Source of the DNA: a virus
Lineage: Duplodnaviria > Caudoviricetes
Virus record (IMG/VR): IMGVR_UViG_3300033076_000709
Span: 1 to 41,391 of that record
Direction: 5' to 3' (one strand)
DNA length: 41,391 nt
The position numbers and the translations under genes are program-made. The notes beneath the pieces were generated by a model. The model made no database searches and was not told the origin of the DNA. It saw nothing but the letters and a program-made list of their open reading frames with translations. This document shows, piece after piece, positions 1-41,104 of this stretch. Positions within the stretch are counted from its first letter, which is position 1. Every line of letters begins with the position of its first letter.

Positions 1-225
1 ACAACGGCGATTTGTATAACATACGCTAACACATTATACAAACGTGCTACCCCACGGTAGCGTCTTTTTAGCCTTTTAAATTCTGTTCAAACAGCAAAAC
101 CGCGGCAATTTGCGATCTTCGTCCTGTCAAGGATAGTTGCTGAGTGCTCACTAGCGCGGTGAGTCTTCCGTCCCTGTGATCCGAGATCCAGGTCTAGGGC
201 ACACGATCTTGGCTTGTGCGGGCCA
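1..225 (-). ncRNA. Candidate structured non-coding RNA, family unassigned, probably continuing past the window edge
   Basis: ORF-free and directly downstream of the minus-strand operon. Stems at 11-42 (14 bp, four G-U pairs possible only on the minus strand), 46-61, 122-133, 147-163 and 173-192; long-range complementarity 92-97/137-142 and 99-104/155-160. Confidence 0.55.
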
Positions 226-237
226 TAACTGCTTGAT

Positions 238-1281
238 TTAGATTATAATTTCTGCCCATTCGGGCATGTAATTTACGATGCTGGTGTTACGTTGATTGTC
301 CCATTGCTTGATAAAATTAAGCAATGAATCTGTGTTGCCTGGTCCGTCGACTAGTGATCTAAAGTTTGAGTCTACTTTTGATTTTAAGAGGTCTGGTAGA
401 TTTTTTGGGTCAAGTTGTGGCCAAAATGCTACTAAGTTAATATTGTTGATTGTGTAATTGTGCTTGCTACAAAAATCGTAAAGTTCGTGAATTCTATGAA
501 TGTTTAGTGCTGATATTGTTGGTAAAATACTTATGTCTGTTATGTCGTTGAGTGATTTTAAGTTGTCAGTAATTTGATCAAAGTTGCTACCCCATCGAAT
601 ATAGTCGTTTGCTTTTCCGGCTGCGTCTATACTCACAGTGAATACCACTTTTTTAAATTTTTTAATTTTGGCAATAAGCTGCTTGTTTACAATGGTTCCG
701 TTTGTTATTATGAATAGTGTTATGTGTTCTGCTGCATGATTATCTATTAAAAAATCCAAAAGGCACAAGAAATCCTTGCTAAACAACGGTTCCCCGCCGA
801 GGACGTCGATATACTCTAGTTGTTCGTGATTCTCTCGTATCCATTGATCTGCTGCCCAATCATACAACATATCTTTCTGTTTTTTCTCTGGCATAATCCA
901 GGTTGTGTTATTCTTCCAAAGATTTTCGTATGTTGTGCTAACGGTGCTAAAACAACTCATGCAACTTATGTTACATGTTTTGCCAGTGATTAATTTTATC
1001 TGTGTTATTTTAGATGGCTCGTGTAGTTGTCGGGTTAACGATTCTAGTCTAAGACTTGGTTTGTTGTTATCATCAAGTTTCCAGCAGGTACTGCACCCTG
1101 GATCTCGACGATTTTGTAAAAAACTGTTTCTTAACTCTGATAATTCTGTACTGTTCCAGTACTCGTTGATGCTGCTAAAACTTATTTTATTAAAAGTTTG
1201 ATTCATGCAACAAGGTGCGTACTTTTGGTGGTGACGATCCACTGCCATAAAAGGGAAATTACAGAAGTTATCTGAAGTCAT
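238..1281 (-). CDS. Radical SAM protein with an N-terminal Cys-rich (SPASM/twitch-like) domain
   Basis: CNISCMSC (CxxxCxxC), GGEPL, ITNGT and VSID motifs; N-terminal FCNFPF...PCC...CSTCW. Start overlaps the upstream stop (ATGA). Confidence 0.85.
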   Translation of the reverse strand: MTSDNFCNFPFMAVDRHHQKYAPCCMNQTFNKISFSSINEYWNSTELSELRNSFLQNRRDPGCSTCWKLDDNNKPSLRLESLTRQLHEPSKITQIKLITGKTCNISCMSCFSTVSTTYENLWKNNTTWIMPEKKQKDMLYDWAADQWIRENHEQLEYIDVLGGEPLFSKDFLCLLDFLIDNHAAEHITLFIITNGTIVNKQLIAKIKKFKKVVFTVSIDAAGKANDYIRWGSNFDQITDNLKSLNDITDISILPTISALNIHRIHELYDFCSKHNYTINNINLVAFWPQLDPKNLPDLLKSKVDSNFRSLVDGPGNTDSLLNFIKQWDNQRNTSIVNYMPEWAEIII

Positions 1282-2375
1282 GATACCAAATGAAGATACT
1301 CAGCTGATGCTGCTTTTCGGACTGCAATATCGGTATTGCAGGTACAACTGTTACGTTGACAAATTGTTGGCTGTGTGGCTGTTCCTATATTAACATCTGA
1401 TATATGTCCAATAGGGCCGTTGTTTAAACAAAGCCCGGCATATATAGACCCGTCAAACTCAACCTGTAGTTGATCCACACCAGCGAAACAAATCCAGTTT
1501 TTAAATTTATTTTTAGACTCTGCTACAATTAAATCTGTGTTTACTTCTTTATAACTGTTGTCGTTATGCCAAATCCCGGCGTTGACCCAGTTTGCATCGC
1601 TGTTGAATTCTACTAGCAACTTTAGTTCATCAGGAGTATAGTAAGATTCAGGAACAAGTTCAACAGTTGAGTCTTGATATTTTTGTTTTAAAATTGATTG
1701 TATCGGGATCGTTTGCAATTCACGAGATTTTTTATCGTCGGTGTTATTAACAAACGGTAACAACGTGGGTTCGTCAGCTGCCCAGGTAATTCTCCGTAGC
1801 ACGACCCAGATATTGTTTTCTCTCAGAAGATCAATGATCTGACGATAACGGTCAATGCGACCGGTTGCAAACATTAAATTTACAGCAATTTGGGTTGATG
1901 TTGATTTTGCTAATGCAATAATTTTGTCAATGGTTTGATCGATTTCTTTATCACTACGCTCGGGGTGTAGAGAAATTGTTATCCCAGTCAGCAGATCGGC
2001 AACGCTGAGATATGTTGAAAGAGGTAAGCTACCGTTAGTGACCACATTTACTTGGGTAGACACACCTGTGAGATTTATTGTTTTTAGTAGTGGAATAAAT
2101 CCAGGATCGATAAACGGTTCACCACCGGTGAAGATCCATTTAATCTGTTGGTTTTTATTTTTAACGTTGTTAGAAATATTTTTTATAAACTCTATAGCAG
2201 ACTTTTGATTGATAAATGGGCTAACCGCATCGTGAATATGCGGACTGCAATAACTGCAATCATAATTGCAACGTTTTCCTAAAAACCAATTGATACTTAT
2301 AACAGTTGGCGGAATGTTAATTGCATGATCTGGGCATTGCAGAGATCTAATTGCAACTATGTTGTTATTTGACAT
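1278..2375 (-). CDS. Radical SAM protein with a C-terminal SPASM/twitch-type auxiliary Fe-S domain
   Basis: CNYDCSYC, TGGEPF and VTNGS motifs; C-terminal WICFAG...DGSIYAGLC...CQRNSCTCNTD. Confidence 0.88.
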   Translation of the reverse strand: MSNNNIVAIRSLQCPDHAINIPPTVISINWFLGKRCNYDCSYCSPHIHDAVSPFINQKSAIEFIKNISNNVKNKNQQIKWIFTGGEPFIDPGFIPLLKTINLTGVSTQVNVVTNGSLPLSTYLSVADLLTGITISLHPERSDKEIDQTIDKIIALAKSTSTQIAVNLMFATGRIDRYRQIIDLLRENNIWVVLRRITWAADEPTLLPFVNNTDDKKSRELQTIPIQSILKQKYQDSTVELVPESYYTPDELKLLVEFNSDANWVNAGIWHNDNSYKEVNTDLIVAESKNKFKNWICFAGVDQLQVEFDGSIYAGLCLNNGPIGHISDVNIGTATQPTICQRNSCTCNTDIAVRKAASAEYLHLVS

Positions 2376-2381
2376 ACACGA

Positions 2382-2813
2382 TTATAATTTTTTGTTGATT
2401 ATGTGACTACCATGCACACGAACTTGAATGTGTCCGTTATACCAATCTTTTGATTCTAGTACTTTGCGTGAAAATTGTTCTCTTGCTTCGATATAGCTGC
2501 ACTCTGATTTAGATGCGCAGTAATAAAGTATTTCTCTTTTAAAATTGTCTTTGCCTAACAGTTCTACATCTTTGGTTAGTTCAGGCGAGCTACCGTAGTA
2601 GTCTCTCCAGTCTGAATCAACTTTGGTTCGAACCTTTTTCTTTTTCTTTGTGCCGTTTTTTAGTTTAACTGTTTTCTGAGTTGTTCGAGAAAATTTTGCT
2701 AGTTTTTTACCGATGTACTTACGGTTATTGGTGATGTTAGTAATCATGTAGACAAACCCCACACACTCTTCGGGTAGTTCTAAAACTAGTTGATCTTGAT
2801 AAGTCCATGTCAT
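2382..2813 (-). CDS. Stand-alone GIY-YIG family endonuclease of the type common in T4-like phages
   Basis: GFVYMITNITNNRKYIGKK (GIY-YIG motif), DWRDYYGSS, conserved Glu in SYIEAREQ, WYN; no NUMOD tail. Confidence 0.85.
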   Translation of the reverse strand: MTWTYQDQLVLELPEECVGFVYMITNITNNRKYIGKKLAKFSRTTQKTVKLKNGTKKKKKVRTKVDSDWRDYYGSSPELTKDVELLGKDNFKREILYYCASKSECSYIEAREQFSRKVLESKDWYNGHIQVRVHGSHIINKKL

Positions 2814-2831
2814 GTATGATAGTTATCATGA

Positions 2832-3845
2832 TTACCACAAAGTAGCGTATTTTTCGTCCACTAATGAGCTTTTGCATTTGGTTTGGCATTCCTGCCACTT
2901 GAATGTTTGAAACTCAGTTGCCCAGAAAGGATCTGCTAATACATCGGTTAGTGTTCTTGTTTTTAAGTTGAAGTTGTTTGCTATTCTTTGCCAGTCGGAA
3001 TTGTGATTGTATCTATTTGCTACCCAACAGCACGGGAATAACCTACCACGGGCATCAACATACAATCCTTTATTGCCTATTTCACATAACGGTGTTACGC
3101 CATTACGACTTTTGGTTTGATGGAATAATTTGTTGTTTGTAAATGGTATTTCTGTCCAGGTGCTGCGTTCAGATAATGGTACAACGTCTCGTTCAAATCT
3201 GTGACTGCTACTAACATATTGTACACTAGGTTGTAACGGATCGCTAGAGCCATAGGACGGATACACACTACCAAACTTTGTGCTCTTGGTCAGTTGAAAC
3301 ACATCAACACCCAGTTGTTTTGCAAACTCCTGCATGAATTCCAACTTGTGCTCATTGAACTTAAATGCAATTGCTGCCCATACAATTTTACAATGGCTAG
3401 TAGCTCGCAATGTTTGTAATCCTGCGATGATGCTATCATAATCACTGTTAACACGATACAAGTTGTTGCTATCGTTATCGTATCCGTCTATGCTAAAATG
3501 CACAGTATCGTCGCTGTCTAAGACCTTGCCTAAATCAAGCCACCAGGTGAGCTTCTTGTGTGACCCGTTGGTGATGATCACAATTTCCACAGGCTTGATA
3601 TCTTTGAGATATTGAATTACTGGAATTAGATCATGAGCGTAAATAGGATCTCCGTCATCGCCACAAAATGTGATCTTCTCTACATTTGCCTTTACAAATT
3701 CGGGAGTGAAGTTGCGTTTAAAAAATTCTAGATCTAACTCTGTATTAACAAGTCCTTCGGGTACTTCTTGACGAGCACATCGAGGGCATGCCAATGTGCA
3801 TTTGCTAGATATCTCGATGTGGAAGTGCCAGGTTGCTAATGTCAT
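2832..3845 (-). CDS. Radical SAM protein with a C-terminal twitch-like domain
   Basis: CTLACPRC, FCGDDGDP, ITNGS and FSIDG motifs; C-terminal PLC...GRLFPCCW...CQTKC. Confidence 0.88.
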   Translation of the reverse strand: MTLATWHFHIEISSKCTLACPRCARQEVPEGLVNTELDLEFFKRNFTPEFVKANVEKITFCGDDGDPIYAHDLIPVIQYLKDIKPVEIVIITNGSHKKLTWWLDLGKVLDSDDTVHFSIDGYDNDSNNLYRVNSDYDSIIAGLQTLRATSHCKIVWAAIAFKFNEHKLEFMQEFAKQLGVDVFQLTKSTKFGSVYPSYGSSDPLQPSVQYVSSSHRFERDVVPLSERSTWTEIPFTNNKLFHQTKSRNGVTPLCEIGNKGLYVDARGRLFPCCWVANRYNHNSDWQRIANNFNLKTRTLTDVLADPFWATEFQTFKWQECQTKCKSSLVDEKYATLW

Positions 3846-5923
3846 GTTATGTCTACATCTGTATTATACTGTGTAAAGCCGTTTTCTTTGACCACTTTGA
3901 GAATATTCTCCACACGCCCAGCAAGTTCGTCTTTGTGACTCACTAACCAAATTGACTTGTGTCGTTCTCGACTCATGTGTTTCAACAAGCTCAGGCCGTT
4001 TTCTACACCTTGTGTGTCTAAACCATTGTCCATGAGTTCGTCAATGAACAGCAGGTTGATAGGATGATACAGTGATTCCCATACGTCACGGAATGCCCAG
4101 CTCATACTCAAGATTAGTCGTGTTCTTTCACCTCGACTCAAGTTATCAAAGTCCAGTTCGCGGCCCAGTTCTTCAATACTCACTGAAAGATCGTTGTTAA
4201 ACTTCACAGTGTGCGGCAAGCCAATGCGATCCAAGTAATGTGTCATACGTTGATTGAGATAACTCAGATTCTGATCAATAATCTTCTTGCGAACAAAACT
4301 ATCCTTGGAAGTTAGCAGCTTGAGCAAGAATTCTTGATGCTCTTGCACACGAGTCAGTTCATTGATAGTGTCGTAGTTTACAGTTTGAAGAGCTTGTTTT
4401 TGCATCTCGTCAATTTGTTCTGTATACGGATCCTTCTCGTCGCCCTTCTTGGCAATTTGATCCAATAAGTTGTTTACTCGACTACGATGTTCAATTGCTT
4501 CTGCTTCGGTGTCATAATGTGTTGCAGGTTGCGGCGGCACAACTACAGCTTCCAATTCGTCTAGTTGTTCTGAGAATGGATTGGTTTCTGCTTCTTTGGA
4601 ATCCAATGCTGCCTTTAAACTGTCGAGTTCACTAGAATGACGAATGGCCTCAGCTTCTGTTTTGTAGTGTGTTGACGGCTTTGTACCTAGCTCGCCCAAT
4701 GCTTTTAGTGCATCTGTATTTTCGATCCACTGGGTGTTGGTAGCAAGTAATTGAAGAGCTGCTTCTTGTAGAGCTTTTTCTTTTGCTGCCAACACTGACT
4801 CATGATTGGTGTCGTGAAAGTCTTGCCCGCAAGCATAACACTTGTGATTCTTTAGTTCTTCAACTTCCGCTCGGAGTTTATCTACAAGTTTGGTTTCTTT
4901 AGCTTCGTCTGCAACACAGCGAGCAATGAGTTTTTCTAACTCTGCAATGTCTTTGGCTTTTTGATTGTATGCAGTTAACGCTGCCCACGCCGATAGCTCA
5001 GTTTCGATGTTGATTCGATTTTTGTCTAAATAAGCACGTCCGGCTGCTGCCACTTCTGCTGTGTGTTTTTGCCTCCATGCCGTTTCTCTAGCAACCAGTG
5101 CGTTATAAGCATCAGCCTGTTGTTTCTTTACATTCCAAACGGTTAAGTCACGGTGAGACTGCAATTCGACTTCAATATCAATTTTTGCCAATTCGTCATA
5201 CTGTGCTGCCAAATATGCTAGGTCGCTATCAACTTTCTTTTGCCACAGTCCACTACGACGCTTTAGACTTTCGATTTGTTCTTCGATGCGAGAGTTTGCT
5301 TCTTGTACGGCTCTAACGCGGAACTCTTCTTGAGAAATAGCATCTTTGGTTTGTTTGTTTAGTTCTTTGATCTTGTCTGCACGTTCTGAAAGTAGCGTAA
5401 TGCCCAACAACTGTTCGATGATAGTTCGTTGATCATTGGCTTTTAAACTTAGAAACGGTTCGGTGTATGTGTTAAGTGCAAGAACATGTTTGAACATGTC
5501 GTGGCTCATGCCTAGAATACGCTCAATTGCTTCTTGTGTTTCTTTGTTCTCGCCTTGTGCTTCGTCTGTTGCTGTTTGTTCTTCGTGATTCACATAGAAC
5601 TTTAAAACATTTGGCTTACGACCGCGTTCGATTTTATATTCTTTGTTGTTAACACTAAACTCCAGGCTCACTAACATGTTCTTGCCGTTGGTTTTGTTTA
5701 CTAAGTTATCCTTTCGGATGTTGCTTAAGGCGTTGCCGTAAAGTGCATAACTTAACGCATTGATAATAGTAGTCTTGCCTGTACCGTTTCGAGAGCCATC
5801 GCCACCTAAGTCCAAGTTCTCGCCTAGTACTAGTGTTAGGTCATTGCGGTCAAAGTTAATACCTTGTGTGGCATTGCCTACACTCATAAAGTTCTTAACA
5901 GTTAAATTTTTAAATTTGATCAT
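3842..5923 (-). CDS. gp46: Recombination endonuclease ATPase subunit (T4 gp46/SbcC/Rad50 family)
   Basis: KNFMSVGN, Walker A NGTGKTT, long coiled coil with central CYAC zinc hook, signature LSRGE, Walker B LLFIDE, D-loop GLD, VSH switch; coupled to a gp47-like gene. Confidence 0.95.
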   Translation of the reverse strand: MIKFKNLTVKNFMSVGNATQGINFDRNDLTLVLGENLDLGGDGSRNGTGKTTIINALSYALYGNALSNIRKDNLVNKTNGKNMLVSLEFSVNNKEYKIERGRKPNVLKFYVNHEEQTATDEAQGENKETQEAIERILGMSHDMFKHVLALNTYTEPFLSLKANDQRTIIEQLLGITLLSERADKIKELNKQTKDAISQEEFRVRAVQEANSRIEEQIESLKRRSGLWQKKVDSDLAYLAAQYDELAKIDIEVELQSHRDLTVWNVKKQQADAYNALVARETAWRQKHTAEVAAAGRAYLDKNRINIETELSAWAALTAYNQKAKDIAELEKLIARCVADEAKETKLVDKLRAEVEELKNHKCYACGQDFHDTNHESVLAAKEKALQEAALQLLATNTQWIENTDALKALGELGTKPSTHYKTEAEAIRHSSELDSLKAALDSKEAETNPFSEQLDELEAVVVPPQPATHYDTEAEAIEHRSRVNNLLDQIAKKGDEKDPYTEQIDEMQKQALQTVNYDTINELTRVQEHQEFLLKLLTSKDSFVRKKIIDQNLSYLNQRMTHYLDRIGLPHTVKFNNDLSVSIEELGRELDFDNLSRGERTRLILSMSWAFRDVWESLYHPINLLFIDELMDNGLDTQGVENGLSLLKHMSRERHKSIWLVSHKDELAGRVENILKVVKENGFTQYNTDVDIT

Positions 5924-6933
5924 AGGTTCCGATAGATTTGGAGCAGTAATTTATTGTCGTAGAAGTCAGACTCGATGTTAGTAAGTTGGTCAGTAACAAT
6001 CTGATCCACAGATTCAAACTTAATTTCTCCTGGCGCCATGTCTTCGTCTACACCTGCTGCCTTGTTAGGAATTAGTGCCATCTCACGAAGTTCGTAAGTT
6101 TTGATAAATGTTTCTTTGATGAAGTTGGCTTCTTCGTAACTGATCTCAATGTCTAGATTGACACGAACATGCATTTTGGGCTTAAGAAGAGTTGCAGCGT
6201 TATCAATAAGGTTGGCGAGCCCGTAAACCCTATAGGTCGGTTGAGCAGGCCAAGCATGAAAAGTAGTCTCTCCTCCCCACTCCAGTATAGTGAGTCCTCG
6301 TTCGTCGTCGCCAGCATCTGCATAATTGTGAGGGAACGCATTACCGATGTAGGTAATATTCTTTTTAGTTTGTCTCTTGTGGAAGTGCCCAGTGTACACA
6401 TGCCCAAATCCCCCAAGACTATCTCTTTGCAATTCCCCATGATCTGGCATCTCCACCATAGCGTTCATTAAGTAACCGGGCAGCTCGAAGTGCCCAAACA
6501 AATACTGACCTTTTAGTTTGGCCAGTTTCTTATGATCGTCCCCACATAGCCAAGGAGCAATAGTGACATTACCGTCGCTGAACCAATCATTGCAGATTTC
6601 CACATTAGGGAGGTGCTTTGCCCATTCTACGCTTTGAATGTCACGTTTATCGCGATAGTATAAATCGTGGTTACCAGGGATAAAATACACACGTTCAAAA
6701 TTGTCATTGAGGTGTTCCAGTGCTTGTAGGCTGTAGTTTAGTGTGACTAAATTTAAGCTGGCACGATTGTTGTGCCAGTCCCCAAGAAACAAACAGGTCT
6801 CGCAACCTTCCTCTCTTGCTTTTTGCGTAGCCCATTTGACAAACGCCAAACAGTCCTCGTTGTGCAAGGTACTGTTTGACTTCAAACCAAAGTGGATATC
6901 GGTAAAGATTGCAGCTTTTTTAAATAGATTCAT
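5920..6933 (-). CDS. gp47: Recombination endonuclease nuclease subunit (T4 gp47/SbcD/Mre11 family)
   Basis: Metallophosphoesterase motifs TDIHFG, LGDW, GNHD, GHFE and GHFH; lies between gp55-like and gp46-like genes as in T4. Confidence 0.95.
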   Translation of the reverse strand: MNLFKKAAIFTDIHFGLKSNSTLHNEDCLAFVKWATQKAREEGCETCLFLGDWHNNRASLNLVTLNYSLQALEHLNDNFERVYFIPGNHDLYYRDKRDIQSVEWAKHLPNVEICNDWFSDGNVTIAPWLCGDDHKKLAKLKGQYLFGHFELPGYLMNAMVEMPDHGELQRDSLGGFGHVYTGHFHKRQTKKNITYIGNAFPHNYADAGDDERGLTILEWGGETTFHAWPAQPTYRVYGLANLIDNAATLLKPKMHVRVNLDIEISYEEANFIKETFIKTYELREMALIPNKAAGVDEDMAPGEIKFESVDQIVTDQLTNIESDFYDNKLLLQIYRNL

Positions 6934-7823
6934 ACAGGATATAGTAGTTCCTTTAATTGTATACTATTGGTTGGGAATATGTCAAGTCCATGACATCGAA
7001 TTTCGAGTCCGCGGTTTCTCAATTCCCATTGGATCCACACTTCGCTAGGTAACGTTAACGGAGACCACTCAAGCTCGGTATTTGTTAGAGTCGATTCGAT
7101 AATACTGTTACAAATCCGATCGTGGTCTATGTACTGTTGCAATTGTAAATTTTTCTTATGGAATGGGACTAGCTGTTCAATTGGCGTTTGGTAGTTAAGA
7201 TTACAAAAGTCTTTGATTTTCGATAATGTATTTTCAAAATCGAATAGCAGTTCGGAAACCGTGATCCGCATTAAGTTTGGGAGTTGATGCTCTGATTGAC
7301 GGTCCCACTCAATTTGGTCAAACCAAGCTGGCATCAAATAGTAACTTAAAAATTCACGCATGACCCAGACTGGAATTTGATCTAACTGGGTACCAATCGG
7401 AACTGGCCAATTGCTATAAATTTTCATCAAGTCAATTTCTTCATCAAATTGTCGAGCCAACCAATTGTCCCATATCTTAAAGAAAAAATTATTAATGCCC
7501 AACAAGATTCTGTCCTGATCAGGATAAAGATAAACAATGGATTGTGCATCTTTGCCAATCTCGGCTAAGTTAGACACAATGCGTTCATCCTTTGTTGTTT
7601 TTGGATGTAGCCTGACAAACTTGTAACGAGAGCCACTATTAATGTAGCGCCGCCATCCTTGCATGTTGATTAAATGTTTGCCGTGGAATGCATGACTATT
7701 CCCAACGGTAGTAAATGGTTCTTGAATATCGCCATTGCTTACTAATGTAGTAAGACACCATTCAAGGTAGGTCCCGTAGGACCCACTGTTGAACACTATA
7801 GCAGTGGTAGTGTTTTTATTCAC
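6930..7823 (-). CDS. Hypothetical protein, possibly sulfotransferase/P-loop-like fold
   Basis: Likely GTG start at 7823 overlapping the gp55 stop (GTGAATAA), rather than the track start at 7859. N-terminal strand-loop-helix AIVFNSGSYGTYLEWCL; later ITVSELLFDFENTLSKIKDFCNL resembles the sulfotransferase 'YEDL..D....L..I..FL' segment. Confidence 0.5.
   Translation of the reverse strand: MNKNTTTAIVFNSGSYGTYLEWCLTTLVSNGDIQEPFTTVGNSHAFHGKHLINMQGWRRYINSGSRYKFVRLHPKTTKDERIVSNLAEIGKDAQSIVYLYPDQDRILLGINNFFFKIWDNWLARQFDEEIDLMKIYSNWPVPIGTQLDQIPVWVMREFLSYYLMPAWFDQIEWDRQSEHQLPNLMRITVSELLFDFENTLSKIKDFCNLNYQTPIEQLVPFHKKNLQLQQYIDHDRICNSIIESTLTNTELEWSPLTLPSEVWIQWELRNRGLEIRCHGLDIFPTNSIQLKELLYPV
6956..6985 (-). 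promoter_or_regulatory. Sigma70-like promoter for gp47/gp46, embedded in the upstream CDS
   Basis: TTGACA (6985-6980), 18-nt spacer, TACAAT (6961-6956), 22 nt before the gp47 ATG. Confidence 0.5.
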
Positions 7824-8739
7824 TATAACTAGAAACAACTGCTCCGGACATGTAGGCACCGCCAGACCCGCCAGACCCTGAGTTTTGTCTTGTCCATGAT
7901 GGGTTCAATCCATTGATTTCCAAGATATCATCTCGGATGTTCTGCATTTTCTTTTCGATGTTAAGAATTCGTGTAAAACTATTAGTGATAGCAGCGGTAT
8001 AGTAAGCGAACGGGTTCTGACTTTTGGATTCGTCAAACTGTAGACCAATTTGACTAAGTTGTAAAAGAGCTTGTCCACGCATTTCCTCATTGTAAGTATA
8101 GCCGCGCCAGTTAGAGCGTGTGGCATAGCGTTCACAAAGTTTCATAAACATCAGCGCCAGCTTTTTGGTCATGTTACCGTGGTCCTTGGAAAACTCCCCG
8201 GTTTTCAAATCGCCTTTCCAGTGGCTACGGCCCACAAGTTGTGGAACCTTGTCGTCGTCTAATCGGTAGTGTTCAAATGGCGGAAAGTTTAGGCGCATTT
8301 TGGACACAACCTGAGGCTCAGAATCAAGTAGCTCGTCTAGACCATCATCTAACTCTGTTGGTTCATCAAACTCTAGAATGTCTTCGATTTTCTTTTTCTT
8401 TGCTTGTGTTTTAAGGGGCTTTTTGGGCGCAGAAGGAATATGATCCCAGCATGTGATACGAAACACTAGATCTGTGTGCAGGATTTTTTTTTCGTTTTGC
8501 ACTTCCCCGGTTTCTCTTTTGAGTCGGTCGGCTCTGTTGCGGCGTGCTTCAGCAATAGTGCGCTGATTAATCTTACTAAGACTTGGTAAAATAATGTCGT
8601 ATTGATGATCGTTAGCACGGTCTTGATACCAGCAATATGTGTTCTTGCTTAAATGAATTTCTTTTAAAATGTCGCGGTTATTAAGGTAATTGACCTTGGC
8701 AGGTGTTCTTGTTAGTGTTGGGGCAGGTGTGTCAGACAC
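7816..8739 (-). CDS. gp55: Sigma factor for late transcription (T4 gp55-like) with a large insertion
   Basis: NYLNNRDILKEI, SNWRGYTYNEEM and FDESKSQNPFAYYTAAITNSFTRILNIEKK match gp55 hallmarks; GTG start with AGGAGA 7 nt upstream; upstream of gp47/gp46. Confidence 0.9.
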   Translation of the reverse strand: MSDTPAPTLTRTPAKVNYLNNRDILKEIHLSKNTYCWYQDRANDHQYDIILPSLSKINQRTIAEARRNRADRLKRETGEVQNEKKILHTDLVFRITCWDHIPSAPKKPLKTQAKKKKIEDILEFDEPTELDDGLDELLDSEPQVVSKMRLNFPPFEHYRLDDDKVPQLVGRSHWKGDLKTGEFSKDHGNMTKKLALMFMKLCERYATRSNWRGYTYNEEMRGQALLQLSQIGLQFDESKSQNPFAYYTAAITNSFTRILNIEKKMQNIRDDILEINGLNPSWTRQNSGSGGSGGAYMSGAVVSSYSE

Positions 8740-21239: not shown

Positions 21240-24200
21240 ATGGCAAGAGTTAGAACTGTAGAATTTCTACCAGAAATTTTTCAAACAACAACAAACAAAC
21301 AGTTTCTTGCGGCTACGTTAGATCAGATGGTTCAAGAACCATCCTTTTCTAAAATACAAGGATATGTAGGACGTCGTGTAGGTCCGGGAGTAAACCCAGA
21401 CGACGAGTATATTAAAGAAGACACAGCAGTACGCACTGATTATCAGTTAGAACCAGGCGTAATTATTACCCAACCTGATTCATCTAAAATCCGAGATGCA
21501 ATTACATATCCAGGCATAACTGATGCAATTAGCATGTATGGCGGTCTGACTTCAAATGCTCAAAGACTTTATGCTAGTGAATACTACACATGGGATCCGT
21601 TTGTTGACCTAGACAAGTTTGTAAACTTCAGTCAATATTACTGGTTGCCAGCTGGCCCAGACGATGTTAATGTATATTCTGGTCAATATCCAACATCAGA
21701 CACGTTCGACGTCACACGAGAAAATGGTGTTTATACGTTTAGCGGAGCAACTGGCGATAACCCATCTATTACTCTGGTACGCGGCGGATCGTATCAATTT
21801 AATGTTGCACAAAATGCCAAGGAAACTGTAAATTACCGAGTGTCCAACGATGGTATAAGTTCATATCTAATTGATTATCAACCTAACCCAACTCTACAAT
21901 TAGTTAGAGGAAATACCTACGTATTCACATTAGCACTTAAAGGCGACTATCCTTTTTATATTAAAACTCAGCCAGGACTTGGCACCACAGACCAGTATAC
22001 CACAGGCGTAACCAACAACGGTGCATCAGAAGGCAAAATAACATTTGTTGTACCACAAGACGCACCAGATACATTGTATTATACCAATGACGTCCAGAGA
22101 AACATGCAGGGTGTTATTAATGTAATCGATGGCACACCTGGCACTGGTGCCGGATTCTGGATACAAACTGAACCAGGGGTTGATGGAAAAATTTCAGCCA
22201 CCCCCAATATCAGCAGTCGTGACGTGCTGGGAGTTGTTAATAATGGTGAAGATCTTGGAACTGTAACATTTAACGTTCCGTTATCTACAGACCAGAGTTT
22301 TTATTACACACTCAATGACATCTCAAGTTCGTTGCCAACAAATGGAGTTGATTTAATCACCTCGTTGAAATTCAACGAGATTAATAATATTTTTGTAGAT
22401 CGATTTTTAGCACAATACCCAACTGGTATCGATGGTATTACTAATCTTGATGGCAAGACATTGGTATTCCAGGAACAACAACCAGATGCCGAATCAGGCG
22501 GTTGGCAAGTAACTACTCAATTTGATCCAGTTGTTGCGGGCTCAGGAAACAACGGAAGACCTGGTAGCTTTGACACCACCTTGTTTGACCAAACAACAGA
22601 TGTTCCAGCAAGTGCAAGATATAGCGTCTGGCAAGCTAACTATGTGTCCACCGAAGGCGGCAACAAATATATTAAATTAACAAATATTTTCTCTGTCAGC
22701 AACTATGACAAATTCACTGTATTGTCGGGCACTGTAAATTCAAATACACAATGGTTTAAAAATGCCGATGGTGTATTTGAAAAAATTCCATTGTTGTCCG
22801 CAGTTAAAACCACATTGTACTATCAAGATGGAACCGATCCAGAAATTTTTGGACAGATTCGACTTGTCGACGAAGCAGACGCCGGAACGCTAGACATCAA
22901 TGAAATCATTGGCAAGAAAAACTACACCAGTCCAAATGGAGTAATATTTACTAATGGGCTAAAAGTTACATTTATTGGTAATATTGTCCCAACCAGCTAC
23001 GAGAACAACAGCTATTATGTCGAAGGTGTTGGTACTGCTATTAAGTTACTGCCTGTTGGAAATTTTGTCACCCCAGAAACATATACACAAAGTGCCACAA
23101 TACCTTACGATAGTTTGGCATACGATGTTGGCAATTTTGATGCTAGTTTAAATCAACCTGAGGTTCCAGATTATCTAGTGATCAATCGTGCTAGCCCTGA
23201 CTTAAATGCTTGGTGCCGAACTAATCGTTGGTTCCACATTGACGTAATCAATGCCAGCGCAAAATATAACAACACTGTTCCGTACCTTGACAATAATTTT
23301 AGAGCCAAGCGTCCTATTTTAGAATACCGTGCAGGCACACGATTGTTTGATTATGGAACACAAGGGAAACAACCAGTTGATATTATTGACTTTTCTGCTA
23401 CTGACGCATTAAGTAACATCAACGGAAGCGTTGGATACAGCACAGACGGATACAATTTTATCAGCGGATCTCGAGTTATTTTTGCCGCAGATATTGATCC
23501 TGAAGTAAGAAATAAAATTTTTGTCGTTGAATTTATTGTTCCAGATACTGTACCGCCATTGATTGCAGAACCTATTATCAATCTTGTACCGGCAGCAGAT
23601 TCTGAAGTGTTATTTGATCAATGTGTAGTATGCGTAAGCGGAAATACACAGCAAGGACGTGCGTTCTTCTTTGATGGTATTACTTGGCAAGCAGCACAAC
23701 AGAAAACTAAAGTCAACCAAGCACCGTTGTTTAATGTTTACGACACCGCCGGTGTAAGTTACGGAGATCGTACAAAATATCCAAGTACTAATTTTGCGGG
23801 CAGCAAATTATTCTCTTATGCAACCGGAAATGGCACAGCTGACACAATCCTAGGGTTCCCACTTAAATATTTGAGTTTAAGTAATGTTGGTGATATTGTA
23901 TTTGACAACAATCTATACGAGGACTCATTTACCTACACCAGAGATAGTATCTCTACAACCCAGAATATTAGCGAAGGTAATGTTCGCGAGTACAGCAATA
24001 GAACGTCGTATGCTAAAGAAATTGGATGGCAAACAGCAATTACCGAGAGCGTAATTCGACAACAATTTAGATTCCAGTATGACGGCCAGCCTCTGTTGTT
24101 AGATGTGCCTGTTGACACAACATCAGTACTGCCAGCAATTCAGTTATACTCAGCTGGTATATTCATTGATCCAAGTGACTATACTTTTGAAGTCACCAAT

Positions 24201-27200
24201 GACACAACTATCATTACAATTAACACTGTAGACGAGTTTGCTGGCGTTGGGGACATCATTGAGGTGAATGCGTTAAGTAACAAAACTAGCAAAGTTGCAT
24301 TTTATCAGGTGCCTGTTAATTTAGAAAACAATCCGTTAAACAAAAACAGCCCATCGTTTACATTAGGTACAGCAAGAAGCCATTACCAGTCTATTGGTGA
24401 GAATTTAAAAGCATTAGTGGGACCAATCAACGGCGCCAACAACACACGAGATCTTGGCAATATAATTCCTTACGGCACTAATATTCTACAACAAAGTGCG
24501 CCAATGACCTTGGCTGGCTACTTTATGCGTAGCAAAGACTACAACATTTTTAATTCGATTGAATGGAATAGTCTCGAATATGAAAAGTTCAAAGTACAGT
24601 TGTTGGCCACCGCGGTCCGAAATGATTATACCAACTATTCTATCCCGGACATGTTGACGTCGATTATTAGTGACATCAACACTGGTAAAACAGAGTCGTC
24701 GCCATTTTATTGGTCAGACATGTTGCCGGTGAGCCCAACCTTTACTCAAACCACTACAACAATTACACCAATCAGCACTGATGTGTTTGATCTGTCAACT
24801 ACTTACGACTTTACTAGCTCGAACTATAAAGGGTTGTTGGTATACTTGAATGATGTGTTACTAGTCAAGGATAATGATTACATAGTATCAACAGACGGCC
24901 CACGATTGACTATTACTGCTCCATTGGCAGTGGGCGATGTTGTTGTTATTAGAGAATATGCAACAACCTACGGAAACTATGTTCCTAACACTCCTACTAA
25001 ATTAGGATTATATCCAGCATGGCGTCCAAGAATATATCTGGACCCTAACTACACAGAACCGCAAATGGTTATCCAAGGCCATGATGGCAGTCTCACTATG
25101 GCGTTTGGTGACTTCCGTGATGACTTGCTGTTAGAGTTTGAAACTAGAATTTTTGATAACTTAAAAATTAACAGTCCAATTCCATTGTCTGCAACTGAAG
25201 TGATCCCTGGTCAATTTAGAACTACAGATTATTCACTAAGTGAAATAAATCAAATCTTGAGTCAGAGTTTCTTGACCTGGATTGGGTGGAACAAGTTAAA
25301 TTATCAAGCACAAACTTACAATGCTAACGATCAATTTACATGGAACTATACATCGTGCGGGAATATTTTAACTGGGCCAAATGAAACTGCATTGGGCATC
25401 GGTGCCTGGAGAGGGTTATATCAATATTTCTACGATACTACTAGCCCAGACACTACCCCGTGGGAAATGTTAGGATTCTCAATTGAGCCTGCTTGGTGGC
25501 AGGATGTTTATGGTACCGCTCCGTACACTGGCGATAACTTGGTTCTATGGGATGACCTTGCTGCCGGCCGAGTTGCAGATCCTAATGGCACATATTATCT
25601 TCCTCAGTATGCAAGACCACGTCTGACAGAAATTATTCCTACTGGCAGCGAAGGCGAGTTGTTGAGCCCATTTAACTCTGTAGTTGGATATTATGACAAT
25701 AGTCAGTTCCAGAAGAGCTGGACAGTCGGTGACGGCGGTCCTGTTGAATACTCATGGACTAAGAGCTCGAGCTATCCGTTTGCTGTGATGAGATTGCTGG
25801 CATTAACTCGCCCAGCTGAATTCTTCTCATTGTTTGCTGACCGAGACCTTTACAAATTCGATACTGACTATAATCAGTATCTCTATAACCAACGATTCAG
25901 ACTTGATGGTTCAAACATACAAGTTTACGGAAATGGCGTAAGCAAAGCCAGCTACATCAATTGGATCATTGATTACAATCAACAAACAGGAATCGACAGC
26001 ACAACAGCATTAGAAACTGATTTAGCAAGTCTTGATGTTCGACTTTGCTACAGAATGGCTGGCTTCACAGACAAAGAATACATGCGGATCTATACAGAAA
26101 AGTCTAGTCCTAACAGTTTAAATTCAAGTTTGTTGCTGCCCGATGACAGTTATAGTCTACTGGTCTACAAGAACCAGCCATTTGACCGAGTAACATATAG
26201 TTCAGTGGTGTGTCAGATTGTCGAAGACGGATACGCAGTCTACGGATATAGTATTACCCAACCGTTCTTTGAAATTTTAGTGAGTAAAACCTACGGAACT
26301 AAAACTTCAATTACTGCGGGCGGCCAAAGCATCGATGTACCAAATCAATACACTGATCAGGTAACTAGAATCCCGTACGGATATGTGTTTACTAACAAAA
26401 CTATTGCTATTGATTTCTTGTTAAGTTATGGCGCATTGTTAACTAGCCAAGGTCTTGTGTTTGACGACAAAGACAACGGCTACGTTCTAAATTGGAATCA
26501 AATGGCTCAGGAGTTCTTGTACTGGGCAAACCAAGGGTGGGAAGTAGGATCAGTTATAAACTTAAATCCTACTGCGTTCTCAATTACAGCAATTAAATCT
26601 CAAGCAATAGTTGATAGTATTGTTGCACAGACACCCGAGAATAACATTCTAGATCAAAATAGAAGTACAGTACCAGTTAGGGACCTGGTTATTGAACGTA
26701 TGGATAATGTGTTCAAAGCAATTTCCCAAACACAACAAACAATCAGTTATTTAGATTTAAAATATACCAGTTACGAAAGTATGGTAATATTAGACAATCA
26801 AAGTGTTTTTGCTGATTTAATTTATGACCCAGTGACCGGAGCAAGACAAAGCCGAATTATGGTAAATGCTACTATCAGCAACCAATGGGACGGGCAACTA
26901 AATGCGCAAGGCTTCATTCTAAACAATCAGCAAACAGTCGAGGAATGGAAGTCTAATAAAAAGTATGCCAAGGGTGAAATTGTTTCGTACAAAAATAACT
27001 ACTGGTCAGCACAAACTATTGTTCAACCCAAGGCAGTATTTGACTATGCCGACTGGACACAAAGTGATTATACAAAGATTCAAACCGGCTTGTTGCAAAA
27101 CTTGCCTAACTTTAGCAATCAGTTAATTAACAGTTATGACGTTAACACTGCTAATCTTGCAACTGACCAGGATCTAGTATCATACGGACTAATTGGATTT

Positions 27201-30200
27201 AGACCACGTCAATACATGTCATCGTTGAATCTCGATGATGTTAGTCAAGTTAACGTATACAAGCAATTCATTGGCGACAAAGGCACAATTCGAAGCGTCA
27301 GACTAATCGGAAATGCTCGCACAACTAAAGAAGTTGCCGAATACGACCTATTTGAAAACTGGGCAATTCTCAAAGGTGTGTATGGTGCAAATGCTAACCG
27401 CAGTTTTATCGAACTAAGATTAAACGAAGCCGATCTTTTGGCGGATCCATCGATTGTTCAGTTAGTAAACATTGGCCAAGAAAGCCAAGCAGACCAAACA
27501 GTATTACTACAAGATGTGTGGAGACAGAGCTATAAACTTACTAGCACTGATGTTTTTACAACTACTACAACACCACTGCAAGATGCTGCATTGCCAACTG
27601 CTGGTTATGTAAGTCTCAACGACGTTGATATAACTGTATTCTCATTAGATGGACAGTTAGGCGGATCGTCAGCTGTTGTTAATTCCCTAGGTGTAGGGAC
27701 AACAGTGTGGGCAGCAAAAATCAACAGATACGATTGGAATGTTTACCGATGCACAGCAATACCAGGGTATATATCATCAGTCACTAGTAATTTAAATTCT
27801 ACTGCTATTGTTGAATTTACTGGCAAGCACGGACTTGCAAAAGAAGATGTAACGGTTATTCGATTCTTTGATAATTCAGTTGATGGAATATACAAAGTAT
27901 TGGCAGTACCGAGTTCAAATACAATTGTAATTAACTTACCTATACGAAATACTATTACAGGTCGCGGCGTTGGTTTAGTATTGCGAACCATGAGAGTTGC
28001 ACAAGCAAGTGACGTATTAAATTTAAGTTATGCAAATCTACTAGAAGCTGGAACCAAGGCCTGGGTTGACAATAACGGATCTGGCTTATGGACGGTTTTA
28101 GAAAAACAAACTCCTTTTGTTAATAGTACTGCGTTACCTGTTGATGCAGATATATATGGAGCTAGATTCGGTGCAAGTATTGCGCAAGGATACAAAAATA
28201 TCATCGCGGTAGTTGGTTCACCAGGATACAGAACACCATACGAGGAATCGGCACAAATTGGTGCAGTATATCCGTATCTCAGAGACAACAACAATCAATA
28301 TGCACAAACAGCCACATTGACACTTGGCACACCGGGCATTCTAGGATACGGAAATAGTGTTGACGTTGGCAATCAAAGTTGGCTAGCAGCTGGTGCCAGT
28401 GCATCAAACGGTAACCAGGGATATGCCTCAGTGATTTACCGAGCTGAGAACAATAACGCATTTGAACAAAGACAATTGTTAGTTGCACCCGACGAAGATT
28501 TTGGTACTGGGGAATTTGGATATTCGGTATCCATCGACGAAACTGAACGTTGGTTGTACGTTGGTGCGCCAGGCAATGACAAAGTTTATGCGTTTGCTCG
28601 TCTTGACGTTGAATTTCAACAAGCCAAATATACTACAAATGGTTTGACAAAAAATTATTCGTTTGATGGACTAATTGAGATCACCGAAGATCAGCAAATC
28701 ACTGTTGTATACAACAATCAACTGTTAACTTATATTACTGACTACGAAGTTATCGGATCAACTGTGGTATTAAACACATTACCGCCTGCTGGTCAGAAAA
28801 TAACAATTACTCGCAAAGGTGCCCAGGAATTAATTGGCGATGGGTCATCGACAATGTTCAGTATTGCTAACTATCTAGCGAATATAACTGATATTTGGCA
28901 AATATCTGTAACCGTCAATGGAATTCTACAACGTCCATTTATGGACTATACATTTTCAGCCAACATAGTTGATTTTATATCAGCCCCTGCCGACGGTGCA
29001 AGTGTGGTTGTTACAGCAACAACACAATTTACATACGTGGCTACTTTGCCAGTGTCGGGTCTGGCTGCAAATGCTAGATTTGGTGCCAGCATTACACAGA
29101 CCAGTGATAGTAGATCTATTGTAATTGGAGCATCAAACGATGATTCGTCTACTGTTGATAACAGCGGACTCTCTTATGTGTTTGATAGAGGGGTTATCAA
29201 ATACATTGTAAGTGATCCCTCAGTGACTACATTTACCTTGCCAGCAGGACACCAAGGGCCGATCACAGTTATTGTCAATGGAGAATACTTAACCAATTCT
29301 GCACAATATATCAATGGGCAATTTTCTGTTGTAGGCGACGATGTTGTATTATCAAGTTCAGTTGAACTCAACATAGGCGATGTGATCGAGATCGAAAACA
29401 ACATCTTTACACAGATACAAGTACTGGAAGCTAACGCACCATTTGATCAAAGTCAATACGGTGCAGCACTTGACATGTGCCCATTTAATTGCAGTATAGC
29501 AATTGGTGCGCCAACTGATGGAACAGAATTTATACAAGCCGGCTCGGTGGAAAGACGTATCAACCAGTCTAGAGTATACGGTATCACTACCTCGTTAAAC
29601 GCCAATCCTGCGTTGACAGCTGGAGATACTATTAGAATTAATAATCAGTTAGTAACTGTTCCTGATGCGCCTAATAATACAGTGACTGGATTATCTAATG
29701 CAATTAATGCATCGGGAATTCCTAATGTAACTTCTAGTGTTACTGATGGCCTGTTGACCATTAGTATTATTAATAGTGCCGCTGCTAGTACATTTAACAA
29801 GCTACAAGTACTACCCGGGATAACCGACACTGCATTCAACGCATTGGGCTTTGATACCTATGCATACACTCAGACCATTACAAGTCCTGCGCCAACACTG
29901 AATGCAAATTTTGGTTCATCACTGGCATTCTCAAGTGATGCAATGACATTAATTGTTGGTGCACCAGGTGGCAATATTTACGAGCCTAATACATTTGATG
30001 ACAAAACAACATATTTTGATGATCGTAGCACTACGTTCTCTACTGTGGTTGTTCAATCAGGCGCAGTATACTCATATGATTATTTGGCTAGTTCGACCGC
30101 GGTATTAAGTAACCCTTCAAAATATGTGTTTGGTCAGCAAATCTATGATACTGGCGTGGCTAGCTTAGACCAATGGGGTTCAGCAGTTAGTTATGTCAAT

Positions 30201-33200
30201 GGCAGATTATTAGTTGGTAGCCCAGGTAGTGATCTTGGCGATAGTTCTGTGGACTACGGACGCACTGCTATTTTTACCAATGCAACTAACAGACCTAGCT
30301 GGTATCCAATTCATGTTCAGACTCCTGTTGCTGACATTAATTTGATTAACGGCGTCTACATGTATGATAAGTTGCAATCTAGCGCAACCCATTTCTTTGA
30401 TTCAATCAATCCAATCCAAGGAAAAATACTAGGTGCAGCTCGACAGAACATTGATTACATCGGCAGTGATGATCCTGCAAAATACAATGCAGGCCCTGCA
30501 AATAACAATGGTAATTTCTGGGCCGATGACCTAGTAGGCCGCATTTGGTGGGATATTAGTTCGGTAAGATTCATAGACCCGATGCAAAACGATGTTGTCT
30601 ATACAAGCCGTCGCTGGGCGCAAACGTTCCCTGGAAGTAAAATCGAAGTTTACCAATGGATTGCCGCTGATGTTCCACCAGCACAATACACAGGTCCGGG
30701 TGTGCCATATTCTCTAGAAGATTTTACAGTTACTTCGAAACTTAATTCTCAGGGTATATTTGTTACCAGTTATTATTTCTGGGTAACTGGGTTAGAGACC
30801 ATTGATACAGGTGCAGGTAAAACATTAAGCACTGTTGGTATTGCTCGTTACATCGAAAGTCCCAAGAGTTCGGGTATCCCTTACATTGCGCCGATTGATG
30901 CCAACACCTTTGCAATCTACAACGGAATTGAATATCTAAGTGCGTCTGACACTATTATTCATATTGATTATGATCGCGAAGAAACCAGTGCGAACATTCA
31001 TACAGAATACGAACTCATTGCACAAGACAAAGAAGATAGTTTCTTAAGTGCTAACTTGTATAGAAAATTACAAGATAGTTTCTGCGGTGTAAACTCCAAC
31101 GGAGCTGCTGTTCCTGACATTACATTAAGCCCAGCAGAACGTTATGGCGTACAGTTTAGACCACGTCAGAGCATGTTTGTTGATCGTTATGCTGCTCTGA
31201 AGAATTATCTAACCTATGTCAACGAGATTTTAAAAGACTATCCTACTGTTGAAAACAAATCGTTCACTCTACTGAACAGCATTGAGCCAGAGCCCACTGT
31301 GGCCAGCGGCGAATGGAATCAACGACTAGCTACCATTGAGGAGCTTGGGTATCAAAATATTTACGCGGTACCGCTAGGTTACAAATATCTTGTGGCTTAT
31401 GATAGCACTAACAATGGCAATTGGACCATTTATACAGTGGCTCAGGATACTAATATTCCTTCGGCACCTCGATACACATTGTTAACTCGAGTACAAAACT
31501 ACGACACAAGACAATACTGGGAATATATTAATTGGTACGATCCAACTTACAACAGTAGTATTGTTCCGGTTGCCGAAGTGGCTACATATTCAGAATTAGC
31601 AACAATCTTTTTTGATACCGCAGTAGGTAGCAGCGTAAAGGTTACTGCTAATGCCCAAGGCAAATTTGAAATTTATTTACGTACAGTTACTGGATGGGAT
31701 CGTGTTGGATTACAAAACGGAACCATTGCATTTGCTCAAGACTTGTGGGACTATTCTATTGGACGTTTTGGATTTGACGTTGAAGTATTTGACGCACAGT
31801 ACTTTGACCAAGAGCCAGTTATTGAAACTAGAAAAATTATACAGGCAATCAATGAAGAGTTATTTGTTGGCGATCTAGCAATACATCGTAACCGTGCATT
31901 AATATTAATGTTTAACTTTATATTGAGCGAATCCGAAGCGCCTGAATGGTTAACAAAAACAAGTTTGATTGACGTTAATCATAAGATTCGTCAATTGCTG
32001 CCATACCAAGTATATCGTCAAGACAATCAAGAATTTGTGCTTGATTATCTCAATGAAGTTAAACCATATCACGTACAAATACGAGATTTTAGTTTATCAT
32101 ACAATGGTGAAGACGCATACCAAGGCCAGTTGTCTGACTTTGATGTTCCGAGCTATTATAACAATCTCTTAGAAATCCCACAGTATGTAAGTCCTGTGCT
32201 ATTACCATACGATAAAAGCACTGCAGGCGGGACTGGGACTCCTAACACAGTTTCAGACGCCGGCACTAGCGCACAAATTTGGGCAGAGTGGCCTTGGAAC
32301 CAATGGTATAACAATTATCTATTGAGCGTTAATGATGTTACTATACTCAACGGCGGCTCGGGATATGTTGAAATCCCAACAGTGACAGTAATAGGCGAGT
32401 GTACAGTTGCAGCAGAATTGCTGGCACGTATTAACAGTGCTGGCCAAGTTGTGGCAATTGATGTAATCGTTCCGGGTGCCGGGTATGTAACAACCCCAAC
32501 AATTGCTATAACAGGTGGTAGTGGTTCGGGCGCAACTGCTTATCCAGTAATGAACAACGAGTTGGTTAGATCTATCAAAACAACGATCAAATATGATCGT
32601 TGCGAATATCAATCAACTGTGGTTGACTGGGAATCCAACGTCAGTTACAGCAGTGGAACACAAGTAAGATACAATAATCGCGTGTGGGCAGCAATCGGAA
32701 CAGTTCAAACAACTGAGTTTGATCCCGATAACTGGTTATTAGTACCAGCTTCTGATCTCAGCGGCGCTAATAGAACACAAGGTTTCTATGTTGCTACTGT
32801 TAATGAGCCAGGATTACAATTGCCATTATTGATTGATGGAATTGAATACCCAGGAGTACAAGTTACCGGCCCAGGATTTAATCAAAACACTGGCTTTGAT
32901 GTTGGTAACTTTGATATTAATCCGTTTGACAACATCAGCTATGGACCAGAAGGTCGTCCAACTTATGATCCTGCTATACTGGATGCTGTGTACGAAAGTT
33001 CTTATCTTGATCCATTCTTAGGCACACGAGCAACTGACGTTAATGTTGATGGCGGTGCTTATGTTGACACCTATTCAAGCTATGCTCCAGAAGAACTGGT
33101 ACCGGGAGCTGAGTTTGATACTCTAGACATGCGTGTTTATACTCGTGCAGGTTCTGACTGGGCTGTAAACGGCCATGGCTTCCCTACATTTGGGCAAGCA

Positions 33201-40531: not shown

Positions 40532-41104
40532 TTATTTTGACAATCGTCTTAGATTTGCAGCTTTAACTCCGGCAGCTATTTTTGCTCGAGTCTCTGCGGA
40601 ATAAATTCTACGTCTATTAGACTCGGCTATTTTTTCTTTAGCCTCAATTGTGTGTTTGTATTCCCCAGACTTTCCTTTTCGGTGCGTATTTCTACCTTTG
40701 AGTTTATTAGATATTTGTTGTTTTAACTCTTCACTCATTGGGCCTTTGGTTTTCCCTTTTGCAGAAGCAGATATTTTTGCTCGTGTTTCTATGCTTCGAA
40801 TTGCACCATTTCCACCTTCGCCTCCGTCGGTGAGATTTCTTAAAATACCTGTTCCGAGGTCTTTACGTCCATACCACCGAATCATTCTGCGTTCTAGTGC
40901 AAGAGCGCCGAGCTCGGTTAAGTTAGCTTCTAAAAATACAATTCTGGATTTATCTTTTGGGCAGTTTGTCCGTTCTCTAGATTTAATTTTAATCCAGGCT
41001 CGTAATCCTTTGCCTTTACCTATATAATAAGGGGTATTATCTTCTCTTAGATATGCGTATACATAAAACCCGTTGGGAGGGTTAGTTTTATTATAAGTAT
41101 TCAT
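40532..41104 (-). CDS. Free-standing GIY-YIG homing endonuclease with four NUMOD3-like repeats
   Basis: FYVYAY...PYYIGKG...R...ALALERRMI...[10 protein letters not shown]; repeats [30 protein letters not shown] and [10 protein letters not shown]; AAGGAG 8 nt before the ATG at 41104. Confidence 0.9.

Follow-up and report, generated by a model that had tools for sequence, protein, structure and literature searches.

A conserved RNA-type element with twin heptamers in freshwater jumbo phages, a possible RNA pre-primer at a replication origin

The minus strand at the start of the window, by which we mean the whole 41,391-nt stretch of viral DNA analysed here, is, by comparison with its homologs, the first half of a larger conserved RNA-type element of freshwater jumbo phages, and part of this half adds one more member to an established Rfam family, RF01718 (Polynucleobacter-1). 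Comparative analysis establishes the structure of the element, its strand, a rule that ties two short repeats to each other, a DNA-type tail and its distribution. As to its role, we think it modestly probable, by analogy, that the element is a pre-primer resembling ColE1 RNA II, placed at a transcription-activated (R-loop) origin of T4-like jumbo phages.

Positions 1-237 contain no ORF of 50 aa or more. The first-pass annotation had described a densely structured non-coding RNA candidate here, on the minus strand. Its five shorter helices (P2 to P5 and P7 in Table 1) are all found exactly where it had placed them, whereas the long stem P8, given as 14 bp over 42-11, has 14 bp when counted from 43 to 10 and only 13 bp between 42 and 11; the four G-U pairs attributed to this stem are confirmed. 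The folding energy of 1-237 is not above chance (z -1.14 on the minus strand, -0.27 on the plus strand), and 1-88 of the minus strand alone reaches z -2.30. It is covariation among the homologs, not folding energy, that settles the reality of the structure.

The covariation set consisted of 40 homologs and included the helices first described as well as two from the Rfam model (219-199 and 117-98). Overall, the helices are 92.7% paired, and 40 of their 54 pairs change on both sides (363 cells), a level that none of 500 shuffles reaches and that none of the slid controls comes near. The candidate structure is thus borne out by the very comparison of homologs that had been proposed for it. In the helix cells G-U combinations outnumber A-C combinations by 205 to 40, which fixes the minus strand, again as first claimed. 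Within the three-way junction, P4, P5 and P6 are 98.8%, 87.1% and 98.5% paired, respectively, with compensatory pairs in each. The loop of P8 (26-24) forms one strand of a first pseudoknot, the partner of which lies past the window and which swaps between G-C (47) and A-U (14). Window position 1 also covaries with a downstream partner (U-A 58, A-U 10).

Table 1. Features of the element and of the genes upstream of it, in window coordinates
Feature	Position	Strand	Remarks
Element, 5′ part	1-234	minus	~234 of ~440 nt; about 200 nt missing past the contig end
RF01718, complete model (5′ domain, subtype A)	89-224	minus	Rfam scan
Hairpin P1	199-219	minus	100% paired, 4/5 pairs compensatory; holds GUGUG
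Hairpin P2	173-192	minus	87.9% paired, 5/8 pairs compensatory
Hairpin P3	147-163	minus	97.3% paired, 4/5 pairs compensatory
Three-way junction	92-142	minus	P4 (142-137/97-92) encloses P5 (133-122) and P6 (117-98)
Hairpin P7	46-61	minus	outside the Rfam model; 5/6 pairs compensatory
Hairpin P8, 14 bp	10-43	minus	13/14 pairs compensatory
Conserved core start, 5′ strand of pseudoknot 2	1-8	minus	partner past the window
Two radical-SAM genes	238-1281, 1278-2375	minus	PF04055; between the nuclease gene and the element
SegE-like GIY-YIG gene, 143 aa	2382-2813	minus	PF19835, E 2.7e-33; phrog_447; alignment of 56 locus copies
Upstream genes, including gp55-like late sigma (7816-8739), SbcD/gp47-like, SbcC/gp46-like and radical-SAM	2832-8739	minus	PHROGs 12791, 100, 77

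Two other suggestions of the first-pass annotation had to be given up. The pseudoknot between ACCGCG (160-155) and CGCGGU (104-99) is complementary in the window but not conserved among the homologs (74% paired, one compensatory cell), and it was rejected, as 119 of 500 shuffles pair equally well. The likeness of 204-197 to the 5′ end of a group II intron gives way to another reading, in which GUGUG (204-200) is the covarying 3′ arm of P1. A group II intron, or any other self-splicing or self-cleaving ribozyme, is accordingly hard to credit: the size, the pseudoknots and the conserved single-stranded blocks would fit catalytic RNA in general, but GUGUG varies as a paired stem arm instead of being kept as GUGYG, an Rfam scan of a full-length homolog gave no match to any intron or ribozyme family at E ≤10, no interrupted gene flanks the element, and no reverse transcriptase (RT) was found.

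Although first presented as unassigned, the element has a name. The Rfam scan of the whole window, which had been proposed as a check, returned a single, confident match, to RF01718 at 224-89 on the minus strand, with 120.6 bits against a gathering threshold of 37, an E-value of 7.6e-26 and coverage of the full model (1-141 of 141). The consensus helices of RF01718 are supported by compensatory change, and no other Rfam family was found in the window or its homologs. In 2010, Weinberg et al. listed Polynucleobacter-1 as probably an RNA with a probable cis-regulatory role, occurring in Burkholderiales and in fresh water (PMC2864571). The supplementary alignment of that paper reaches ~280 nt and draws the equivalents of P7 and P8, together with a pseudoknot from the P8 loop, so that these two hairpins, too, had been assigned before. 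The parts of the paper covered here state no function for the motif. Among open-licence papers and bioRxiv preprints, the name Polynucleobacter-1 was not found elsewhere, and neither were the full anatomy and the proposed function of the element; the main text of the Minerva preprint mentions neither GIY nor Polynucleobacter.

The stretch had also been taken for the 5′ part of a larger phage element of the ncRNA type, cut by the contig end, and the homologs do run on past position 1. At the other end, contigs of one sequencing run cover 1-238 in several variants, and their resemblance to the window ends at 234-238, the 5′ limit of conservation in this comparison, with the proviso that this run may be the source of the window itself. 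One contig of this run extends 16 nt past position 1; two matching runs were listed, with contigs from one study. No RNA dataset was listed for window 1-2900, a result that weighs neither for nor against expression. A conserved block upstream of the Rfam model turned out to be where the coding sequence of the GIY-YIG gene ends and was rejected as part of the element. Just upstream of the 5′ end, a perfect -10-like hexamer lies at 242-247 on the minus strand without a good -35, and the promoter scan called no promoter there. Such a hexamer occurs near the 5′ end in 15 of 135 homologs, as compared to one in a control stretch.

Since the 3′ half of the element is absent from the window, its anatomy was read from homologs. 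The closest one compared (L012), identical to the window in 212 of 240 aligned columns, runs 203 nt past window position 1 and has its two repeats at +72 and +120 past that position, giving a total length of ~440 nt, with ~360 nt up to the second repeat. The 5′ pattern recovered 26 viral loci, a 17-mer of the core at least 120 loci (about 1300 stretches estimated), and a longer core pattern 116 matches in metagenomes. Alternative 5′ domains are mounted on one constant core, with subtype A at 90 and subtype B at 40 loci in a rough motif sort of 130 loci; the 5′ domain of subtype B (in L035, L037, L041, L045 and others) is visibly unlike RF01718, with the same core. The core helices contain 47 G-U against two A-C combinations, and the ~360-nt body with its two pseudoknots is shown by this comparison to be RNA-type. 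The hairpin between the repeats has one arm that covaries with each of two partners (core alignment columns 29, 115 and 129, past the window), which points to a base triple or a switch.

A blastn search with a full-length homolog found no match in isolate phages. One copy was found per genome in G002 and G003, where neither the profile nor a gap scan revealed paralogs. A one-mismatch site in G004 was rejected, as it precedes an ORF read as tail-sheath-like by its start and fails the core profile. Long ORF-poor stretches also occur at 297-301 kb of G002 and 105-107 kb of G003; one of them has five minus-strand mini-hairpin loops, and they may be tRNA clusters.

The most unusual feature of the full-length element is a pair of 7-nt direct repeats, A and A′, which flank a hairpin and mostly lie 47-62 nt apart (range to 72). 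The two are identical in 98 of 104 aligned rows, which comprise 12 heptamer types. The six other rows, all left out of the tree and pair counts, are four pattern matches that do not align with the family (L064, L103, L108 and L144), L029, in which the first repeat is missing, and L088, which is misaligned and whose own repeats are identical. A FastTree built from the 98 rows gives 41 changes of the heptamer, although tree error and recombination may have raised this number. The two repeats also agree in 182 of 184 loci picked by the RGATRAN pattern, which leaves three positions free. Gene conversion is disfavoured because the flanks of A and A′ differ consistently. No third column covaries with the heptamer, and no complementary third copy recurs in cis; the partner of A and A′ would thus most simply be the opposite DNA strand, or else a product copied from the RNA. 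L029, which lacks both the first repeat and the inter-repeat hairpin, may have arisen by deletion or misassembly, or may be a dead copy. Even if the mechanism proposed below is wrong, the rule that A equals A′ is a constraint in want of an explanation.

Tyrosine recombinases need identical overlaps of ~7 bp, and A and A′ might be the cores at which DNA crosses over in site-specific recombination or strand exchange. The length of the repeats, their identity, the locus without its first copy and the tyrosine integrase genes next to bacterial copies of the element (five of nine annotated loci, see below) would all fit. However, no integrase stands beside the phage loci inspected, a spacing of 47-72 nt is short for looping, no inverted binding arms are seen, and 300 nt of RNA-type structure upstream would go unexplained; recombination is therefore quite improbable. 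As a further possibility, A-B-A′ could be a template for tandem repeats made by template jumping, as in DRT10 or telomerase. Identity of A and A′ with otherwise free sequence, the hallmark described for DRT10 (PMC12632851), is indeed present, and the likeness to DRT10 and telomerase RNA consists in two short repeats that match each other. Here, by contrast, B is ~45 nt long and contains a hairpin, no RT is found nearby or in the complete host genome, and no repeat product was found. Specifically, RVT_1 is absent from five host records, from 24 YxDD-type ORFs and from the 295 ORFs of 130-1300 aa of the complete genome (E 1e-12), a scan in which a very divergent enzyme could be missed. The predicted concatemer junction has no match in metagenome contigs and 68 in viral contigs, of which eight are family members on the other strand and none is a concatemer. 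We regard templating as very improbable.

Beyond A′ the character of the element changes. In the 110 nt after A′, counted at 175 distinct loci, C-GNA-G triloops number 148 on the sense strand and 92 on the antisense strand, as compared to 9.8 and 6.0 in shuffles, while the 5′ domain has 23 (31.8 shuffled) and the core a single one (26.5 shuffled). In the tail helices, G-U and A-C combinations are equally frequent (22 each). This comparison shows that the element ends in a tail of ~80 nt with DNA-type mini-hairpins, present on both strands. Mini-hairpins of the GCGNAGC type are described as having much greater stability in DNA than in RNA, and as occurring at the origins of phages G4 and St-1 and at ssiA of RSF1010 (PMC13037366). 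Because of the triloop excess, the parity of G-U and A-C and the stability of such loops as DNA, we read the tail as single-strand DNA signals on both strands. A DNA-level element such as an origin had been named as the alternative that would speak against an RNA; the evidence suggests both, with a body of the RNA type and, after it, a tail of the DNA type.

The hosts are T4-like jumbo phages. One genome, G003, is complete (347 kb) and encodes homologs of gp43, gp41, gp61, UvsX/Y, gp46/47, gp55, portal and capsid; the window carries the same gene block as these hosts. Its co-oriented genes at 2832-8739 would be the source of read-through transcription into the element. Elsewhere in the window, a 4633-aa ORF on the plus strand (21240-35141), with weak FG-GAP and CBM5/12 matches, follows baseplate genes and probably encodes a giant baseplate or tail-fibre protein, and a homing-endonuclease-like ORF containing NUMOD3 lies at 40532-41125 on the minus strand.

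The neighbour most often met is the SegE-like GIY-YIG gene, which directly adjoins the element at 59 of the 76 distinct loci, is found behind other genes in ten and is absent within 1.4 kb in seven (69 of 76 loci thus have it within that distance). HEARO/omega RNA works with IscB, and the element could similarly be an RNA partner (guide, scaffold or inhibitor) of the adjoining nuclease, whose Tyr, Glu and Asn motifs, which we take to be catalytic, are conserved and which is rich in basic residues. The linkage is nevertheless not obligate: two genes intervene in the window, bacterial island copies have a DUF6641 gene and an integrase instead, and look-alikes in cultured phages lie beside an endonuclease VII or RusA-like gene. 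Moreover, 497 phage records encode homologs of the nuclease but show no such RNA by blastn, with a ~150-nt gap behind the gene of the closest of these homologs, and the near-identical nucleases of L011 and L035 go with different 5′ domains and heptamers. A nuclease partner is thus improbable. Regarding the locus itself, three radical-SAM genes surround the GIY-YIG gene in the window (238-3845, minus strand), two of them before the element, unlike in the 59 loci of direct contact. In L008 and L024, the GIY-YIG gene and the element are separated by an extra ORF of ~240 aa, the start of which looks like that of a homing endonuclease, and the junction, with intervening genes in ten of 76 loci, may be an insertion hot spot. 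Although PHROGs and GenBank give phrog_447 the label 'NAD synthetase', its Pfam match is to the SegE family of GIY-YIG proteins.

On the other side of the element, the next ORF is co-directional in 27 of 70 loci and convergent in 43, and the downstream genes are unrelated to each other among loci. Table 1 of the 2010 paper lists the motif as cis-regulatory ('y') and as a switch with a question mark (PMC2864571), and a leader or riboswitch for the downstream gene would agree with the co-directional loci and with the stem arm that has two covarying partners and might act as a switch. The convergent majority, the unrelated genes and the DNA-type tail that intervenes all argue the other way, and we strongly doubt this reading.

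The element also occurs outside phages. The long core pattern had no match in GTDB genomes, and the 5′-domain pattern found 30 loci (L413-L442), mostly in freshwater Burkholderiales, 13 of which match the core profile at E <0.01. Among 30 proteins annotated from nine of these loci, a divergent DUF6641 gene appeared at six loci and a tyrosine integrase at five, with no GIY-YIG family among the 30. The island copies have new heptamers; of 25 distinct copies, 20 have identical repeats, and those of the other five differ by 1-2 nt; their tails are less enriched in triloops (7 against 1.9). Small islands that combine the divergent DUF6641 gene, the element and a tyrosine integrase are candidate phage satellites.

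Among cultured phages, the nearest relatives are PA5oct, Atu_ph07, Phosso and RaK2-like phages, and four of the six inspected have a syntenic, poorly coding gap of 0.8-1.5 kb. The gap of Serratia phage BF recurs in 62 records, at four to five places each among the matches listed: in BF, five copies lie on the same strand at intervals of 55-85 kb, and fEgEco12 contains four. These RaK2-type copies show both pseudoknots, with covariation by eye, and one BF paralog changes both repeats together. They have identical 6-8-nt repeats and tails with 29 triloops (0.8 shuffled), and an extended -10 promoter precedes 18 of 18, whereas a dedicated promoter is not conserved in the freshwater copies. Sequence profiles gave no significant match to the RaK2-type element (E ≥0.15). 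A covariance model run over 56.8 kb ranked two BF copies first, at the predicted place, with rough E-values of 0.026 and 0.21, and matched the core of four of 18 RaK2-type copies at E ≤10. The case for homology between these look-alikes and the freshwater element is weak. The gaps of PA5oct and Phosso were rejected as members, having no significant similarity to the BF element or the profiles, and are syntenic look-alikes only. PA5oct has three same-strand, promoter-led paralogs with a shared 5′ block (L403, L404 and L405, at ~76k, 13k and 246k), and in Phosso the 1-kb non-coding gap (L374, 8759-10160) is followed by an annotated RNase HI gene.

A paralog of the syntenic gap of PA5oct, whose element is linked to the family only through its position, overlaps ncRNA004 (246116-246734), detected by RNA-seq. 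This overlap bears on the reading of the element as a free, trans-acting ornate RNA, a scaffold or protein sponge similar to GOLLD or ROOL, in which A and A′ would be twin sites for parallel pairing or for the binding of a symmetric partner. A large, knotted RNA with swappable 5′ domains on a constant core would suit such a role. Yet ncRNA004 is rare, at 0.08, 0.03 and 0.02% of phage reads (PMC7318152, Table 1), the homologs have no GOLLD or ROOL match in Rfam, and the DNA-type tail on both strands would lack an explanation. In addition, the heptamer changes freely, even between paralogs of one genome, a freedom that a shared partner would resist. We consider this reading unlikely.

The reading that we prefer, an RNA pre-primer at an R-loop origin, would proceed as follows. 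The body would be transcribed, here probably as the end of a gp55-gp47-gp46-GIY-YIG unit, and the folded RNA would present A, which would pair with the template DNA strand at A′ and nucleate a persistent hybrid. Cutting or termination of this hybrid would provide a primer for leading-strand synthesis, and the opened strands would fold the tail hairpins, onto which a helicase or primase could be loaded. Transcription, R-loop formation, priming and replisome loading are the steps that we infer. Any segment of the RNA pairing with the template further downstream would appear on the sense strand as a direct repeat, just as the A = A′ rule requires. Several observations count against an origin: the link to cultured phages is weak, one copy was found in each of the two freshwater genomes scanned, no promoter of its own is conserved in the freshwater copies, the bacterial islands include five repeat pairs that differ and have tails less enriched in triloops, and two near-complete genomes (G002 and G003) show no turn of the GC skew at the element, the drift following the gene strand.

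A wider generalization is more tentative, and we stop short of calling it probable: the element may represent a widespread class of RNA-programmed origins, in which a double-pseudoknot RNA carries a 7-nt self-guide matching its own downstream DNA site, found in freshwater jumbo phages, in RaK2-like phages with several co-oriented origins, and in integrase islands that may be satellites relying on the phage replisome. If the origin reading is true, it would give a function to an orphan Rfam motif of 2010 and a DNA replication start site to a large phage group, for which we found none described in open-licence papers and bioRxiv; the island copies would raise the possibility of satellites that borrow a jumbo-phage origin.

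The RF01718 model spans about a third of the ~440 nt, and the twin heptamers, pseudoknot 2, the DNA-type tail, the second 5′ subtype and the jumbo-phage setting are absent from it and from the 2010 alignment. The tail resembles the G4 and St-1 origins and RSF1010 ssiA in its clustered C-GNA-G and C-GNNA-G loops; here, however, the mini-hairpins follow a long RNA-type body and lie outside the window. T4 oriF and oriG act through R-loops (PMC4412123), and the likeness extends to a T4-like phage, transcription-dependent initiation and several origins per genome, as in the RaK2-like look-alikes. As covered by that source, oriF and oriG consist of a promoter and an unwinding element, with no ornate covarying RNA or twin-repeat rule described. 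For ColE1, a structured RNA of 550 nt forms a persistent hybrid from which RNase H makes the primer (PMC5043065); this requires pairing between the rG stretch of RNA II and dC residues in the template, and sites for helicase and primase become exposed on the displaced strand (PMC4412123). The element shares with RNA II a long structured non-coding body, here supported by covariation, and single-strand signals, here the tail mini-hairpins, although the layout as a transcript is our interpretation. The proposed transcript would also carry a segment that pairs with the template further downstream, with which the identity of A and A′ and the lack of a complement in cis are compatible. The homopolymeric G/C stretch there and the variable heptamer here count against the likeness. 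The ColE1 stretches are at -265 and -20, the G stretch far upstream, whereas the variable 7-mer lies about 50 nt from its twin; the phages encode their own T4-type replisome, and no antisense RNA I was identified. If the proposed role is correct, jumbo phages, too, would use RNA priming of the ColE1 style, with the G stretch replaced by a variable, self-matching heptamer.
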